Virus record (IMG/VR): IMGVR_UViG_2617270973_000001 | Origin: a virus | Lineage: Duplodnaviria > Heunggongvirae > Uroviricota > Caudoviricetes | Length of the DNA: 12,431 nucleotides | Strand: one strand, 5' to 3' | Part shown: positions 1,188 to 6,233 of the stretch, in pieces | Numbering within the stretch: position 1 is the first letter of the stretch | How the letters are laid out: every line of letters begins with the position of its first letter | Notes under the pieces: generated by a model | What the model was told of the DNA's origin: nothing | The model's input: the letters and a program-made list of their open reading frames with translations, nothing else | Database searches by the model: none | Position numbers and translations under genes: made by a program

Positions 1188-1940
1188 ATGAACCTTGAAG
1201 CCTTACCAAAATATTACTCCCCAAAATCTCCAAAATTGAGCGATGACGCACCGGCGACAGGCTCAGGTGGTTTAACGATTACGGATGTGATGGCTGCGCA
1301 GGGGATGGTGCAGTCGAAAGCACCGCTTGGGTTTGCCTTATTCCTGGCAAAAGTTGGTGTTCAGGATCCTCAGTTTGCGATTGAAGGTCTGCTCAATTAC
1401 GCGATGGCACTGGATAACCCGACATTGAACAAATTGAGTGAAGAAACCCGGTTACAGATCATCCCTTACCTTGTGAATTTTGCCTTTGCTGATTATTCCA
1501 GGTCTGCGGCAAGTAAGGCTCGCTGTGAGCATTGTGCTGGTACTGGATTTCATAATGTATTGCGCGAAGTGGTGAAACACTCCAGAAGCGGGGAATCTGT
1601 TATCAAGGAAGAGTGGGTGAAGGAACTATGTCAGCATTGCCATGGTAAGGGAGAAGTCAGCACAGCGTGCAGAGGGTGTAAGGGTAAAGGTATTGTCCTG
1701 GATGAAAAAAGAACCCGGCTTCATGGTGTGCCTGTTTATAAGATTTGTGGGCGTTGCAATGGCAACCGGTTTAGCCGTTTACCAACCACACTGGCGCGGC
1801 ATCATGTCCAGAAGCTGGTACCGGACCTGACGGATTATCAGTGGTACAAAGGATATGCAGATGTCATTGATAAACTGGTTACAAAGTGCTGGCAGGAAGA
1901 AGCATATGCAGAGACACAATTGAGAAAAGTGACAAGATAA
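1188..1940 (+). CDS. Late-gene antiterminator Q-like protein (QuuQ / phage 82 Q type), zinc-finger containing
   Basis: 250 aa from ATG 1188, with GGAG at 1177-1180. The track's 1146 start has no RBS and overlaps the upstream gene. Four CxxCxGxG-type motifs (CEHCAGTG, CQHCHGKG, CRGCKGKG, CGRCNGN). Followed within 150 bp by a promoter-like element and a strong intrinsic terminator, then the lysis genes. Confidence 0.7.
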   Translation: MNLEALPKYYSPKSPKLSDDAPATGSGGLTITDVMAAQGMVQSKAPLGFALFLAKVGVQDPQFAIEGLLNYAMALDNPTLNKLSEETRLQIIPYLVNFAFADYSRSAASKARCEHCAGTGFHNVLREVVKHSRSGESVIKEEWVKELCQHCHGKGEVSTACRGCKGKGIVLDEKRTRLHGVPVYKICGRCNGNRFSRLPTTLARHHVQKLVPDLTDYQWYKGYADVIDKLVTKCWQEEAYAETQLRKVTR

Positions 1941-1971
1941 ATGATTTTCGCCGAAGATGGCGACATGATGC

Positions 1972-2000
1972 TTGCATTTTTCAAAAAATATGGTTAGGAT
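1972..2000 (+). promoter_or_regulatory. Candidate late promoter (pR'-like): -35 TTGCAT, 17-bp spacer, -10 TAGGAT
   Basis: TTGCAT at 1972-1977 and TAGGAT at 1995-2000 with a 17-bp A/T-rich spacer, immediately downstream of the Q-like gene, where lambdoid phages carry pR'. Hexamers are imperfect and the assignment is positional. Confidence 0.3.
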
Positions 2001-2009
2001 TCTCCTAAC
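1993..2009. repeat. Perfect 7-bp inverted repeat GTTAGGA-ttc-TCCTAAC overlapping the candidate -10/+1 region
   Basis: Read directly: 1993-1999 GTTAGGA, 3-nt spacer, 2003-2009 TCCTAAC. Possible protein-binding palindrome or nascent-RNA hairpin at the start of the late transcript. Confidence 0.5.
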
Positions 2010-2050
2010 GATGGGCTTTGTATGTCTGCCGTTAACGAAATCATAACAAA

Positions 2051-2075
2051 CCTCGCTTCGGCGGGGTTTTTGCTT
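2051..2075 (+). terminator. Intrinsic terminator (tR'-like)
   Basis: 6-bp G/C-rich stem CCTCGC/GCGGGG (one G-U pair) closed by a UUCG tetraloop, followed by TTTTTGCTTTT. Lies about 50-70 nt downstream of the candidate promoter and 20 nt upstream of the RBS of the next ORF. Confidence 0.65.
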
Positions 2076-2090
2076 TTCTGGAGGTCAATA

Positions 2091-2348
2091 ATGCAGGGCG
2101 AAAAGCAGCAGCCATATTTTTTTAACCCTGGTATGACTGTTGAACAGCTTGAAGACTGGCTGGAGCAGCAAAAGCTTCATCTAAGCCGCTATAACCGTCT
2201 GGTAAAAGAAAAAGCAGAGCTTGAAGAACGGCTCAGTGATATTTCTGTGGAAATTGAACGAATGTCTGCTGGTGGTTTTAACGGAAAGTTGAGTTTCCCC
2301 TGGGAGTCAAGTCCGCCTCTGAGAAATAATCAACAGGGTAGTGTTTGA
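2091..2348 (+). CDS. Hypothetical protein, 85 aa, predicted coiled coil; first ORF after the tR'-like terminator
   Basis: ATG at 2091 preceded by GGAGG at 2081-2085. The track's 2022 start would make the terminator hairpin coding. The central segment (EQLEDWLEQQKLHLSRYNRLVKEKAELEERLSDISVEIERM) is strongly charged and heptad-like. No family recognised. Confidence 0.55.
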   Translation: MQGEKQQPYFFNPGMTVEQLEDWLEQQKLHLSRYNRLVKEKAELEERLSDISVEIERMSAGGFNGKLSFPWESSPPLRNNQQGSV

Positions 2349-2493
2349 CTGAAAGTTTTAGTGAGCGGAGAAATTCTGCTGCTTCTTCTGATATGTAATC
2401 AGGTTTTAGTCTGTCTGAAATAATAGACAAACTGTCATTAAGATCCCTTCCCCTCATATCTGAGAGGACCAACAGCAATTAAGAGGGGGCTAA

Positions 2494-2880
2494 ATGTCCG
2501 ATCCGATTTCCGGTACTGGGCTGGCTGGTGGTGCCCTGACGGGTGCCAGTGTTTATGGACTGCTGACCGGAACTGATTACGGCGTTGTATTTGGCGCATT
2601 TGCAGGGGCTGTATTCTACATAGCAACAGCAGCAGATCTGAGTGCATCGCGTCGACTGGCATATTTTATCGTGTCATATATTGCCGGGATCCTTTGCTCT
2701 GGGTTGGTTGGCTCCAAGCTGGCGAACTTGACCGGATACAGTGATAAACCTCTGGATGCTATTGGTGCCGTAATCGTCTCTGCTTTAGCCGTTAAAATCC
2801 TGACGTTCCTGAATAATCAGGATATCGGCTCGCTGGTGGCGCTCATAACGCGCCGGGGAGGTTCAGGTGGAGCTAAATGA
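2494..2880 (+). CDS. Putative holin (phage lysis membrane protein), 128 aa
   Basis: Strong RBS (AGAGGGGG) upstream of ATG 2494. Gly/Ala-rich hydrophobic segments consistent with 2-3 transmembrane helices and a charged C-terminal tail. First gene of a lysis cassette that ends with endolysin and Rz/Rz1. Confidence 0.7.
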   Translation: MSDPISGTGLAGGALTGASVYGLLTGTDYGVVFGAFAGAVFYIATAADLSASRRLAYFIVSYIAGILCSGLVGSKLANLTGYSDKPLDAIGAVIVSALAVKILTFLNNQDIGSLVALITRRGGSGGAK

Positions 2881-3148
2881 CCCGACAGCAACTATAAATG
2901 CGCTGTTATGTGCTTGTGTTGTTATTACTCTGATGTTTTATCGTCGTGGTGATTCGCGGCATCGTCCTTGGGTTTCACGTTTAGCCTGGCTGATTACTGT
3001 TACATACAGTGCTGTTCCGTTGGCCTATCTCTGTGGGATTTATCCTCATTCCTCATGGCCCATTATCGTGGCGAACACTATTTTTCTTTCCGTGCTGGTG
3101 GCCGTCAGAGGCAACGTTGCACGTCTGGTTGATCATCTGAGGCACTAA
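2867..3148 (+). CDS. Second small lysis-cassette membrane protein (holin or antiholin-like), 93 aa
   Basis: GTG start at 2867 with GGGGAGG at 2855-2861; overlaps the stop of the preceding gene. About three hydrophobic segments; its stop TAA (3146-3148) overlaps the endolysin ATG (3148). Confidence 0.65.
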   Translation: MELNDPTATINALLCACVVITLMFYRRGDSRHRPWVSRLAWLITVTYSAVPLAYLCGIYPHSSWPIIVANTIFLSVLVAVRGNVARLVDHLRH

Positions 3149-3762
3149 TGAACCAACAATTATTTCAAAAGGCGGCTGGTATTAGCGCCGGGCTGGCTGC
3201 GCGCTGGTTTCCGCACATTGATGCGGCGATGAAGGAATTCGGCATTACAGCACCAGCGGATCAGGCAATGTTTATCGCTCAGGTAGGCCATGAGTCGATG
3301 GGGTTTAGCGCCGTAGTTGAAAATTTTAACTACACACCATCTGCGCTGGTGGCGACGTTCGGAAAGAGGATCACACAGCAGCAGGCTGATGCCCTTGGCA
3401 GAACATCCGGACATGCAGCTCGTCAGGATGCTATTGCCAATCTGGTGTATAGCAACCGACTGGGTAACAAAGCACCCGGTGATGGCTGGAAATATCGCGG
3501 TAGAGGATTAATTCAAATCACTGGCCTCCATAATTATCGCATCTGTGGCGCGGCGCTGAAGTTAGATCTGGTGACCTCACCTGAACAACTGGAGCAGGAG
3601 CTACAGGCCGCGCGCTCAGCTGCATGGTTCTACACATCTAAAGGCTGCATGGTCTACGGTGCCGATATTAATCGTGTTACGCGCATCATTAACGGCGGTC
3701 TGAACGGTATTGAGGATCGTAAGATTCGATACAACAAGGCGCGGGCGGCGCTGCTGGTATGA
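3148..3762 (+). CDS. Endolysin, glycoside hydrolase family 19 (chitinase-like) type
   Basis: 204 aa. Contains YRGRGLIQITGLHNY and AAWFY, which resemble the class I chitinase / GH19 signatures. Sits between the holin-like genes and Rz. Confidence 0.85.
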   Translation: MNQQLFQKAAGISAGLAARWFPHIDAAMKEFGITAPADQAMFIAQVGHESMGFSAVVENFNYTPSALVATFGKRITQQQADALGRTSGHAARQDAIANLVYSNRLGNKAPGDGWKYRGRGLIQITGLHNYRICGAALKLDLVTSPEQLEQELQAARSAAWFYTSKGCMVYGADINRVTRIINGGLNGIEDRKIRYNKARAALLV

Positions 3763-4220
3763 AGATGAGTTATTGGGCGCTCATTTTAACGTTTATTGCT
3801 TGTATTGCTGGTGGTCTTGTCTGGTCAGCTAATCATTACCACAATAAAGCCATTGAATACAAAAAACAGCGCGACGAAAACGCTATGGCATTAGATTCGG
3901 CTATGGCGACGATCTCTGATATGCAGAAGCGTCAACGTGACGTAGCAGAACTCGATGCCAGATATACAAAGGAGCTTGCTGATGCTAACGCGACTATCGA
4001 AAGTCTCCGTGCTGATGTTTCTGCTGGTCGTAAGCGCCTGCAAGTCGCAGCCACCTGTGCAAAGTCAACGACCGGAGCCAGCGGCATGGGCGATGGAGAA
4101 AGCCCAGGACTTACAGCAGATGCTGAACTCAATTATTACCGTCTCCGAAGTGGAATCGACAGGATAACCGCGCAGGTTAACTACCTGCAGGAGTACATCA
4201 GGACTCAGTGCTTAAAATAA
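3759..4220 (+). CDS. Rz: Rz-like i-spanin (inner-membrane spanin subunit)
   Basis: 153 aa. N-terminal transmembrane helix (YWALILTFIACIAGGLVW) followed by a charged coiled-coil-like periplasmic region. ATG overlaps the endolysin stop (ATGA). A lipoprotein ORF is embedded in its +1 frame. Confidence 0.8.
   Translation: MKMSYWALILTFIACIAGGLVWSANHYHNKAIEYKKQRDENAMALDSAMATISDMQKRQRDVAELDARYTKELADANATIESLRADVSAGRKRLQVAATCAKSTTGASGMGDGESPGLTADAELNYYRLRSGIDRITAQVNYLQEYIRTQCLK
3982..4167 (+). CDS. Rz1: Rz1-like o-spanin (outer-membrane lipoprotein) embedded in the +1 frame of Rz
   Basis: ATG 3982 preceded by AAAGGAG at 3968-3974. Signal peptide with lipobox (MLTRLSKVSVLMFLLVVSAC), then a Pro-rich mature region (KSQPPVQSQRPEP…). 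Lies entirely inside Rz. The track's 3955 start is an in-frame alternative without an RBS. Confidence 0.75.
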   Translation: MLTRLSKVSVLMFLLVVSACKSQPPVQSQRPEPAAWAMEKAQDLQQMLNSIITVSEVESTG

Positions 4221-4433: not shown

Positions 4434-4976
4434 ATGAATTATCCAACTATCGTTGACGGCATTGATTTCAAAGAACTGGTTTTTATTACCAACAATGACC
4501 CTGTCACCGATTCATTTATGGTGGCGAAAGCATTTCGTAAGCGACATGACAACGTTGTGCGTGATGTAGAAAGAACTATCGCTGCTTGTCCTGAAGAGTT
4601 TGATACAAAACTCAATTTTGAGGTTTGCTATAAAAACAATGAGTTACAGAATGGTAAGCCACAAAAATTCTATCGGCTACGTAAGGATGGGTTGATGCTT
4701 TTGGTTATGTCCTACACCAAAAAAGAAGCAATGCGTATCAAAATTGCTTACATCAACGCATTCAACTGGATGTACGCCATGCTTCAGGTTGGTAATCGTC
4801 AATTTGAAGAAGAGCGAAATGCCGTAATGCTGGAGTACATGAAAGAGAAGGATGTTGCCAGCATGTCAGGTCGCCTGCTAAATCGCTGGGGAAAAATTAA
4901 GAAGCCACAGCTGCTGGCTAGAATTGAACGCCTTGAACAGCACGGGCAAACCGTAATTCCCGGACTCACCAATTAA
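4434..4976 (+). CDS. Phage regulatory protein, Rha family
   Basis: 180 aa. The N-terminal region (ELVFITNNDPVTDSFMVAKAFRKRHDNVVRDVERTI) matches the conserved Rha-domain motif (…GKRHDNVLRDI…). Visibly more A/T-rich than its neighbours and bracketed by a terminator upstream and a 285-bp non-coding stretch downstream. Confidence 0.8.
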   Translation: MNYPTIVDGIDFKELVFITNNDPVTDSFMVAKAFRKRHDNVVRDVERTIAACPEEFDTKLNFEVCYKNNELQNGKPQKFYRLRKDGLMLLVMSYTKKEAMRIKIAYINAFNWMYAMLQVGNRQFEEERNAVMLEYMKEKDVASMSGRLLNRWGKIKKPQLLARIERLEQHGQTVIPGLTN

Positions 4977-5262
4977 CGGCAGCACCGCGAAACAACCCAA
5001 GCCAGTAAGTGGGGAAATAACACTGGCAGCCACTGAAAGATGAACCTCCAGCCTTATGGCAAAAAAGATTCTTTGTGGTGGCGGACTGATGGAAAGACAT
5101 CGGTTATTGCAGAGGCCATTCAATGAGTGGTCTCGACAATGGCTTATACCCTGCATGGGATAACTTAACTGATATCCCTTTTAACGGATAAACGGAGCCA
5201 ATAATGGCAGAGAATGTCGGCATTATGGCAGTGAAATTTGGATAAATCGGAGATTAGTACAT

Positions 5263-5613
5263 ATGCCGCCACGAATCCCAAAAGCCTGCCGTGTTCGCGG
5301 TTGCCGCCATACCACCACAGATCCGTCAGGATATTGTGAAAGCCACAAAAGCGAAGGCTGGACGCAATATAAGCCAGGTCAGTCCCGTCACCAGCGCGGT
5401 TATGGTTCGAAGTGGGACGTTATCCGCGCGCGTGTGCTGAAGCGTGACAAAGGCCTGTGCCAGTTGTGCCTGCGTGCCGGTGTGGTTCGTGAGGCGAAAA
5501 CCGTTGACCACATCATCCCTAAAGCGCATGGCGGCACAGATGCCGACAGCAATCTGCAGAGTTTGTGCTGGCCGTGCCATAAGGCGAAGACGGCCCGTGA
5601 ACGGCTAAAGTGA
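5263..5613 (+). CDS. HNH endonuclease (terminase-associated type)
   Basis: 116 aa. N-terminal Cys cluster (CRVRGCRH…C) and a classic HNH core (DHIIPKAHGG…NLQSLCWPCHKAKT). GGAG at 5249-5252. Directly upstream of the terminase small subunit, as in HK97-like phages. Confidence 0.85.
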   Translation: MPPRIPKACRVRGCRHTTTDPSGYCESHKSEGWTQYKPGQSRHQRGYGSKWDVIRARVLKRDKGLCQLCLRAGVVREAKTVDHIIPKAHGGTDADSNLQSLCWPCHKAKTARERLK

Positions 5614-5639
5614 TAATAATTCTCAACTGTCTGAGGGGA

Positions 5640-5699
5640 GGGGCGGGTCAAATCCCTGTGACCTGACGTCTTCCGGACTGCCCGCCCCATCGTTTTTTT
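5640..5699. other. G/C-rich inverted repeat plus T-tract between HNH and terS: candidate cos/packaging site or terminator
   Basis: GGGGCGGG (5640-5647) and CCCGCCCC (5681-5688) form a perfect 8-bp inverted repeat about 33 bp apart, followed by TTTTTTT (5693-5699). HK97-type phages place cos between the HNH gene and terS. Confidence 0.4.
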
Positions 5700-5738
5700 A
5701 TACCCGCGAAAAATGAAATTTAACCAGGAGTGCCGCAT

Positions 5739-6233
5739 ATGGCTGGAACGGCGGGGCGTTCCGGGCGTCGCCCCAAGCCAACGGCGCGCAAGGCGCTGGC
5801 CGGAAACCCCGGCAAGCGAGCCCTGAATAAAGATGAACCTGTTTTTACGCCCATCAAAGGTGTTGAGCCACCGGAGTGGTTCGCTGAAGAAGATCTCCCT
5901 CTCGCTACGATCATGTGGCAACTGACAACTAAAGAACTCTGCGGTCAGGGTCTGCTGTGCGTGACTGACCTCGCGGTGCTTGAGCGGTGGTGCGTGGCCT
6001 ACGAGTTCTGGCGACGTGCCGTGAAAAATATTGCCAGACAGGGCAACACCATCACCGGTGCAATGGGCGGTATGGTCAAAAATCCGGAGCTGACCGCCAA
6101 AAAAGAACAGGAGTCCGAGATGAGCAGTACGGGGGCAATGCTCGGACTCGACCCCAGCAGCCGCCAGCGTCTGATTGGCCTGGCGGGGCAGAAGAAAGCC
6201 ACTAACCCGTTTCTGAAAATCATCGAATCATGA
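5739..6233 (+). CDS. terS: Terminase small subunit, P27 family
   Basis: ATG 5739 with AGGAG at 5726-5730; the track's GTG 5730 start overlaps the RBS. N-terminal [29 protein letters not shown] and C-terminal [11 protein letters not shown] fit the P27-type small terminase pattern. Its stop overlaps the terL start (ATGA). Confidence 0.85.

Follow-up and report, generated by a model that had tools for sequence, protein, structure and literature searches.

What is a small gene doing at the head of the late transcript of a lambdoid prophage, at the very place where other phages carry Shiga toxin genes? The question is raised by a stretch of 12,431 nucleotides (nt) from a virus of the class Caudoviricetes (IMG/VR record IMGVR_UViG_2617270973_000001; hereafter the window), which spans late control and the head genes of a lambdoid prophage resembling ST64B and HK97. 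Between its antiterminator gene Q and its holin genes lies a gene of 85 amino acids (aa), which an earlier note, made from the sequence alone, had taken for a candidate late-expressed accessory gene in a site for cargo genes, and to which it could assign no family. By comparison with its relatives, the small gene is the orphan half of a conserved cassette of two convergent genes, the other half being a gene of the ECs1072 family that the window retains as a fragment. As an explanation of the whole, the best that we can offer, and one that we hold tentatively, is that the gene is the lytic-strand half of this cassette, that it would form a toggle with its partner, and that it has been orphaned here. 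The features of the window that bear on this reading are as follows.

2080-2084, plus strand: ribosome-binding site (RBS) GGAGG, 6 nt 5' of the ATG
2091-2348, plus strand: 85-aa gene of the phrog_3501 family, ATG at 2091-2093 and TGA at 2346-2348
2117-2123, plus strand: homopolymer of seven T within codons Tyr9-Phe10-Phe11
2204-2234, minus strand: decayed terminator of the partner, antisense to codons ~38-48 (KEKAELEERL)
2278-2478, minus strand: remnant of the ECs1072-family partner, 66 codons, of which ~62 are the partner's C-terminal ones, overlapping the 85-aa gene by 71 nt
2349-2414: segment of 66 base pairs (bp) kept in the window and deleted in most Escherichia coli copies, a further erosion of the remnant
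2444-2447: deletion junction at which the module is fused to the holin leader

An open reading frame (ORF) of 85 codons is by itself no proof of a gene, because 88 ORFs in the window reach 40 aa or more, and the case for this one is made by conservation. The protein matches the phrog_3501 profile over its full length (E 6.4e-54, 180.9 bits, residues 1-84 on profile positions 1-84 of 85), which makes it a member of that family, whose function is listed as unknown. Searches of Pfam, NCBIfam and PADLOC with the protein returned no match, and the earlier note, which could assign no family, is thus right for Pfam and NCBIfam and wrong in view of phrog_3501. A search of 5.8 billion proteins gave 58 clusters of homologues, nearly all of 81-93 aa and all labelled hypothetical, as are WP_001542448.1, YP_009324840.1 and Sb50 of phage ST64B in RefSeq or GenBank. 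The phrog_3501-type family is narrow, because a profile search of 1.84 billion representatives returned only 34 matches; a profile scan of genome contigs with the family alignment gave no confirmed locus.

Against divergent homologues, the ratio of non-synonymous to synonymous divergence (dN/dS) is 0.11-0.29. Codons 1-16, which are rich in synonymous change, have a value of 0.036, as against 0.21 for the helix and 0.58 for the tail. Variation is greatest at third codon positions, with 47, 45 and 69 variable columns at the first, second and third positions, respectively. The start codon, the RBS (a GGAGG- or GGGGG-type site in homologues) and the length are kept from E. coli to Photorhabdus. 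Given the near-constant length across 58 clusters, the low dN/dS and the third-position bias, the window positions 2091-2348 are a real protein-coding phage gene; the coordinates, the peptide and the strong RBS reported in the earlier note are confirmed, and the reading frame is conserved in relatives. Two longer versions of the protein were discarded, one of 108 aa from the ATG at 2022 and the other the 119-aa annotation of Sb50. The extension crosses the terminator hairpin and is unconserved, and the alignment of the homologues begins at Met1, behind an RBS that is conserved. In the ST64B record (L003, NC_004313), Sb50 is annotated from the upstream ATG, reading through the terminator hairpin.

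The evidence that the gene belongs to a pair comes from its divergent relatives, where a full-length ECs1072-family gene lies on the opposite strand, convergent with the small gene, in every locus. These partners are 144-163 aa long (~148), overlap the 3' end of the small gene by 71-110 nt and score 167-181 bits against NF033230 ('ECs1072 family phage-associated protein'), for which the curated cut-off is 70 bits. With the partner as the seed, 80 viral loci were retrieved, and in all 80 the small gene is present too, arranged in the same way; distant partners from Photorhabdus, Serratia, E. coli, Budviciaceae, Providencia, Erwinia and Rouxiella each have a convergent small-gene homologue. The pair is spread over more than nine enterobacterial genera and occurs beside four Q families (PF03589, PF06530, PF06323 and the ST64B Sb49 type) and at least five holin families, the holins beside the homologues belonging to PF16931, PF05449, PF05106, PF16083, PF04971/PF16080 and a P22 gp13-like group; in phage SfIV and in locus L175, no holin stands beside the small gene. 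Both genes are intact in 112 of the 175 loci of our census, and each also occurs intact beside a disrupted mate. The convergent cassette of a phrog_3501 or phrog_1744 gene with an ECs1072-family gene is a category defined in this analysis. The ST64B record contains a full-length 144-aa ECs1072-family gene at 2731-3165 on the minus strand, which is unannotated. A Rouxiella prophage with the cassette (L176) encodes, past its lysis genes (609-845), a protein of the Acb2/Tad1-hairpin family, which is of the anti-CBASS/anti-Thoeris type.

This distribution bears on the idea of the earlier note, in which the small gene would act on its own as a late accessory gene, for lysis timing or directly on the host, and its link to the partner would be incidental. 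Such a role would suit a gene with a strong RBS that is the first ORF after a tR'-like terminator and lies directly 5' of holins. We nevertheless regard it as very unlikely. The AlphaFold2 model of the 85-aa protein has no membrane segment and is a soluble single helix, and there is no pairing with one holin family, so that neither mark of an antiholin or lysis regulator is seen. At least five unrelated holin families and four Q families argue against a specific lysis or Q partner, and in relatives the small gene is separated from the holin by 0.5-2 kb holding tRNA genes, the small RNA (sRNA) STnc100 or an insertion sequence (IS) element. The sister family described below is found in the immunity region of SfIV-type phages, at a long distance from their lysis genes. 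A survey of the order Q, ORF, holin, as the earlier note had suggested, does place the ORF after Q in most relatives, but the Q and holin families vary. Of all its neighbours the ECs1072-family gene alone is invariant, and for that reason the lysis-timing role that had been put forward for the small gene is unlikely.

The two genes are not merely adjacent. It is with its last 24-37 codons that the partner overlaps the 3' end of the small gene, over 71-113 nt, and at synonymous sites the partner's divergence is 0.84 outside the overlap and only 0.48 inside it; by this measure the overlap is truly dual-coding. Within it, the peptides GKLSFPWDPSP of the small protein and DWDPKENSVFL of the partner are read from the same near-palindromic DNA. 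Near-palindromes GGAAAACTGAGTTTTCC and TGGGATCCCA are present in the overlap (window 2260-2300; for instance, at ~4170-4210 in locus L054), and because of them both proteins read W-D-P from shared bases. A compensatory variant, GGAAAGCTGAGCTTTCC, occurs in locus L170. The near-palindrome may be a structured element in both transcripts.

A second antisense element lies further upstream in the small gene. Opposite codons ~38-48 (KEKAALEERL), the minus strand carries a hairpin of 8-10 bp, followed by TTTTTCTTTT, in 21 of 21 distinct full modules, with a median minimum free energy (MFE) of -14.5. In the alignment of this hairpin, 92% of cells pair, as against 35-61% for slid controls, in three pairs both sides have changed in a compensatory manner, and values as high as those observed turn up in no more than 3 of 500 shuffles. 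From this pattern of pairing, we read the hairpin as the partner's intrinsic terminator, lying antisense within the small gene.

Elements of this kind invite the suspicion that the small gene makes no protein, and that its frame is open only through the coding end and the terminator of the antisense partner. KEKAALEERL, the most conserved peptide of the helix, is indeed the exact antisense of the hairpin and its T-run, and GKLSFPWDPSP is antisense to the partner's DWDPKENSVFL. The suspicion is scarcely credible in the face of codons 1-16, which lie outside both antisense elements and combine the lowest dN/dS of the gene with plentiful synonymous change, and of the start codon, RBS, length and third-position variation noted above.

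In the window, the cassette is no longer complete. The remnant on the minus strand, which the earlier note does not mention, matches NF033230 with an E-value of 5.9e-9 and 36.1 bits (profile positions 81-140 of 142), below the 70-bit cut-off, and is a gene fragment. It is without a native start and has lost nearly invariant residues (DW to DL, EN to GN and FL to FR). A full-length partner is thus found in the relatives and not in the window. Nor is an embedded terminator left: orphan copies, that of the window included, have a broken 3' arm of the hairpin (MFE -6.5 to -9.8), and in the window the hairpin is broken by the codon change A43E (MFE -6.4). Homology to the modules of ST64B, L054, L055 and L067 stops at 2443, and positions 2448-2516 match the segment upstream of the holin in L073. 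Because homology breaks at this junction, a deletion has taken the partner's N-terminal ~80 codons, its promoter and the STnc100/tRNA region that relatives have there.

The orphan form is common. Among 5426 complete E. coli genomes, 101 carry the small gene and all have the orphan form; the full module of an E. coli locus (L167) found no match in complete E. coli genomes by megablast, and blastn with the module of L054 found the orphan form only. It also occurs in Salmonella DT104-type prophages and in phages 118970_sal3 and SKA5. Within this lineage, the small gene has 11 non-synonymous and 5 synonymous segregating changes, a ratio of polymorphisms (pN/pS) of 0.56, compared with 0.16-0.20 for Q, both holins and the endolysin. 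The difference from these neighbours has a Fisher p of 0.015, and that from neutrality a p of 0.21. Insertions or deletions disrupt the frame in 4 of 52 copies of the small gene versus 0 of 104 holin copies (p 0.011), with three of the four frame-shifted copies differing in the length of the T7 run in codons 9-11. By these counts, the small gene shows relaxed constraint in the lineage of the window. With respect to the T-run, frame-shifted copy L050 has eight T and L051-L053 have six; such length variants could be assembly error, decay or slippage.

It is a real possibility, then, that the window gene is a decaying leftover without remaining function, intact only because of the short time since the loss of the partner. 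Its substitutions are looser than those of its neighbours and not distinguishable from neutrality, its frame is disrupted where that of the holin is not, and erosion has already set in at the antisense terminator and in the partner remnant. Moreover, dS within the lineage is at most 0.04, so an intact frame of 85 codons is expected by chance. Set against decay are the wide distribution of the orphan form just described and the preservation of its RBS and start codon, with the N-terminal motif and the helix mostly untouched. In addition, 6 of the 11 amino-acid changes fall in tail codons 64-85, where the constraint seen in full modules is shared with the frame of the partner.

The reading of the gene as half of a cassette extends to a second family, found in a different part of the phage genome. 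In Shigella phage SfIV, the partner gp36, a distant one, matches phrog_5286 (E 1.5e-90), and an unannotated 68-aa ORF convergent on gp36 matches phrog_1744 (E 4.8e-34), which is also the second-best PHROG match of the window ORF (E 0.008). The two small families are bridged by intermediate proteins P0085 and P0086, which match both phrog_3501 and phrog_1744, and a comparison by hhalign of our family alignment (A1) with the SfIV ORF gave an E-value of 3.8e-4. The arrangement in SfIV (L178, NC_022749) is as follows.

2754-2975, minus strand: 68-aa ORF, the first ORF behind the pL-like promoter
3155-3128: pL-like promoter

No other gene comes between the cI terminator and the SfIV ORF, which lies behind a strong leftward promoter with 11 of 12 consensus matches. 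The promoter is pL-like, because the operator-like repeats that it overlaps also occur between cI and cro, where 20-mers recur (3935-3954) that are shared with oR. This layout is repeated in the metagenomic locus L175, next to a cI/cro/YdaT region. The SfIV pair resembles that of phrog_3501 in being convergent and overlapping with a phrog_5286/ECs1072-type partner. It differs in its place, which is behind a pL-like promoter beside cI rather than behind Q and tR', in the extent of the overlap, which is only 29 nt, and in a shorter protein without the C-terminal motif. The rule common to both is that the small gene comes first behind a lytic-cycle control point, with the partner antisense to it; the control point is the Q-dependent pR'-tR' in most phages and the pL-like promoter in SfIV-type ones. 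In prophage Sp4 of E. coli Sakai, the gene after which the family is named, ECs1072 (now ECs_5703, 105.7 bits), has a cII-like gene on one side and the replication gene O on the other. An unannotated 169-aa ORF stands opposite ECs_5703 (L172, 34168-34677, plus strand), and its N-terminus, SPHIWRGGLSDVELAEWL, weakly resembles the motif of the small gene.

The shape of the small protein is simple. Its AlphaFold2 model is a single helix over residues 17-60, with a core predicted local distance difference test score (pLDDT) above 90 and non-helical ends. The hydrophobic periodicity of the helix is 3.45-3.5 residues, with a power reached by 31 of 2000 shuffles; the description of the core in the earlier note as heptad-like is fair on account of this periodicity, and a long helix with a 3.5-residue repeat agrees with the coiled coil that the note named. 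As modelled, helix 17-60 fits a coiled coil or a docking helix. A profile search of the PDB with the small protein returned designed coiled coils only (E ~0.003). The conserved motifs lie at the two ends, QQPYFFNPGM at the N-terminus and GKLSFPW at the C-terminus. A sliding-clamp-binding or PIP-like reading of QQPYFF fitted the consensus poorly and was dropped.

What could such a pair do? In the toggle that we tentatively favour, the partner would be made from its own promoter in the lysogen, as the wiring of the genes suggests. At the lytic switch, strong transcription of the small gene would silence the partner by collision and by antisense pairing over the overlap, and the small acidic coiled-coil protein would then bind and neutralise partner protein made beforehand, through its conserved terminal motifs. 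For an orphan copy, whose partner is gone in cis, two fates can be envisaged, in that it may be drifting or may be kept as protection, guarding the phage against ECs1072-family proteins of other resident prophages. A more specific version, which we regard as doubtful, is that the pair would be an undescribed prophage conflict module, in which the partner serves the lysogen as an effector of exclusion or host modulation and is turned off by the small gene, placed first in a lytic operon, as antisense transcript and as antagonist. Orphans would then be anti-exclusion genes, by which a phage could grow in hosts with resident prophages that make the partner. Of the functions suggested earlier for the small gene, anti-defence or host manipulation is possible.

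A different use of the same pair would be co-operation, with the small protein working with the partner as a subunit, adaptor or chaperone and the convergence serving only to balance expression levels. The strict co-inheritance of the pair across genera and genomic contexts is what this view would predict, and a long helix with conserved termini resembles a docking element. It is unlikely all the same, as subunits of one machine are normally co-transcribed, and here the small gene lies behind a lytic-only control with the partner antisense, so that opposite timing is predicted; a further argument against it is that either gene can be intact where the other is disrupted.

Several observations weigh against the toggle itself. 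Beside an intact partner, the small gene has been lost to nonsense or frameshift mutations at least four times independently, and because of these null alleles the lysogen must tolerate the partner without the small gene. Both proteins are acidic (pI 5.1 and 5.95), so there is no charge complementarity between them, and the supposed contact between the two is deduced from gene wiring. Predictions of the partner's promoter are not convincing either: none was made in L054, and that in L069 has 9 of 12 matches. The partner is modelled with confidence as an all-helical protein (pLDDT 90, predicted template modelling score 0.87), but a fold and profile search of the PDB and BFVD found no relative for it, no solved or viral fold was matched by either protein, and PADLOC models matched neither the small protein nor five partner homologues. 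As to expression, no data were found for either gene except a listing of ECs1072 in a microarray of uninduced Sakai (PMC2241611). Lastly, the small-gene counterpart in Sakai Sp4, where the partner family takes its name, is doubtful (hhalign E 0.055). In the literature on ECs1072, Sb50 and the 'Fels-1 prophage chaperone', we found no functional study.

If the small gene is half of a cassette, how does it come to lie where toxin genes do? The pR' region of lambdoid phages is an established site for morons (Tree et al. 2014, PMC4104026; Juhala et al. 2000, as cited in PMC4104026). Window positions 1900-2033, which comprise the 3' end of Q and the presumed pR', are 93-95.5% identical to Stx2c/Stx2k phages, with the identity ending there. 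Phage phiSTEC1575-Stx2k has the same KilA-N, DUF968 and Q genes and a 95.5% identical Q-3'/pR' segment, after which come tRNA genes, stx2AB and then the holin. Because the same segment leads to tRNA genes and stx2AB in that phage, the 85-aa ORF, judged by this alignment, occupies the classical pR' moron site, just as the earlier note had supposed. From about 2034-2060 to 2443, homology is to ST64B-type modules, placing a mosaic joint at ~2033/2034, and because of this shared homology the terminator hairpin, the ORF and ~95 nt beyond it form one mosaic unit.

The resemblance to morons is nonetheless partial. As with stx2, the insertion site is the same and the content between Q/pR' and the holin varies, differing between the window, Stx2k/Stx2c phages and ST64B-type phages, so the gene does lie between genes that are adjacent in related phages. 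A classical moron, however, brings its own promoter and terminator, whereas the small gene is without both and relies on read-through from pR'. No promoter-like site was found in the 11 nt and the RBS that separate the tR'-like hairpin from the ATG, and a terminator scan found none between the stop codon and the holin. Only the opposite-strand partner has the layout of a moron, and it is truncated in the window. What the small gene does have is the first position behind a lytic-cycle control point, with the RBS following immediately after the hairpin. Thus, the cargo gene of the earlier note is correct as to the site and the place after the terminator, and incorrect as to a free-standing gene, given that it is half of a convergent pair.

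In relatives, the interval from Q to the holin also holds tRNA genes (Met, Phe, Thr and Gly), on either side of the cassette (L054, 5034-5262; L067, 941-1250; L069, 3855-3930; L073, 3870-3945), which resemble the tRNAs upstream of stx in Stx phages. The sRNA STnc100 (RF02076, 75-109 bits) is found on the late strand, ~100 nt beyond the start codon of the partner and divergent from it (L069, 4740-4935; L073, 4741-4932; L074, 5843-6034; L082, 4756-4940; L054, 5702-5935); a 2026 preprint links STnc100 to PasD sRNAs. In L074, a 348-aa ORF, apparently an IS transposase, lies between the cassette and STnc100 (4794-5840), illustrating the plasticity of this interval. An Rfam scan of window positions 1900-2600 gave nothing above threshold, and STnc100 and the tRNAs of the relatives are absent from the window.

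The genes around the cassette are those of a conventional late region, and the window is near-identical to Salmonella phage 118970_sal3 and to E. coli prophages such as that of enterotoxigenic strain H10407. In order, with the strand where it was recorded, the features are as follows.

179-1174: DUF968/HNH gene
1188-1940, plus strand: antiterminator gene Q (PF03589, E 2.7e-54; phrog_127), with a DnaJ-type zinc finger
1941-2047, plus strand: Q-proximal intergenic region, presumed site of pR' and a short leader
2048-2079, plus strand: tR'-like intrinsic terminator, with a hairpin at 2048-2069 and a T-rich tail at 2070-2079
2494-3148, plus strand: start of the lysis cassette, consisting of two holin genes
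2494-2880, plus strand: PF16931 holin
2867-3148, plus strand: PF05449 holin
3148-3762: GH19 endolysin
3759-4220: Rz, with embedded Rz1 at 3955-4167
after Rz/Rz1, in order: Rha, HNH, terminase, portal, protease and HK97-type capsid genes

The mechanical ORF of Q opens at GTG 1146, and relatives annotate the ATG equivalent to 1188; matching database records name the product antitermination protein. The placement of pR' in 1941-2047 follows the lambda paradigm only, and a consensus promoter scan of this region called no promoter. A perfect 7-bp inverted repeat (GTTAGGA-ttc-TCCTAAC, 1993-2009) in the presumed pR' region overlaps a possible -10 element, TAGGAT, 17 nt after TTGCAT, and the promoter scan made no call there. 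The hairpin at 2048-2069, identified by a terminator scan, starts 108 nt past the Q stop codon, has nine pairs, five of them G-C, and is followed by TTGCTTTTCT, directly 5' of the RBS. Most relatives have a hairpin and T-run at the equivalent site with differing stem and loop sequences, and one subgroup has tRNA-Thr in place of the hairpin before the RBS, with a terminator farther upstream. From its position and form, a tR' role of the hairpin is inferred. With this hairpin upstream and the PF16931 holin starting at 2494, the small gene does stand between a tR'-like terminator and the holin, as originally described. The two consecutive holin genes of the window belong to different Pfam families, and the Rz1 lipoprotein ORF (LMFLLVVSAC...), embedded in the +1 frame of Rz, is typical.

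Among known systems, the closest are the other phrog_3501 members, ST64B Sb50, gp129 of 118970_sal3 (YP_009324840.1) and WP_001542448.1, which share 75-99% identity and the same position after Q; ST64B and Klebsiella phages carry the full partner, whereas the window, 118970_sal3 and SKA5 have the remnant only. In lambda, the convergent transcription units cII and oop overlap at their 3' ends, and one transcript can pair with and destabilise the other. The likeness to the present pair lies in the convergent units and their 3' overlap. The differences are that oop is non-coding, whereas here both strands encode conserved proteins, and that here one terminator is embedded in the coding sequence of the other gene. 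Exclusion systems and type II toxin-antitoxin (TA) pairs likewise tie a small acidic protein to a larger one at an accessory position in prophages, and one half can survive as an orphan. TA pairs, however, are co-directional operons with recognisable domains, and the genes here are convergent; no TA, Pfam or PADLOC model matched the pair.

Taken alone, the window gene is an additional member of a catalogued, uncharacterised family in a known kind of site, that is, a small ORF in a well-known cargo site behind Q, and is here probably a leftover. Its relatives give it a wider meaning, as families that are listed separately (phrog_3501 and phrog_1744 on the one hand, ECs1072, that is NF033230/phrog_5286, on the other) unite as one cassette of Enterobacterales prophages, carried by ST64B, SfIV and Klebsiella prophages among others. 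The wiring of this cassette is unusual, with dual-coding convergent ends, a putative terminator inside the other gene and the small gene first behind a lytic promoter. The cassette flags unannotated genes in reference phage genomes, and it gives a testable hypothesis for two families without a function, in which the one would be switched on in the lytic cycle against the other.

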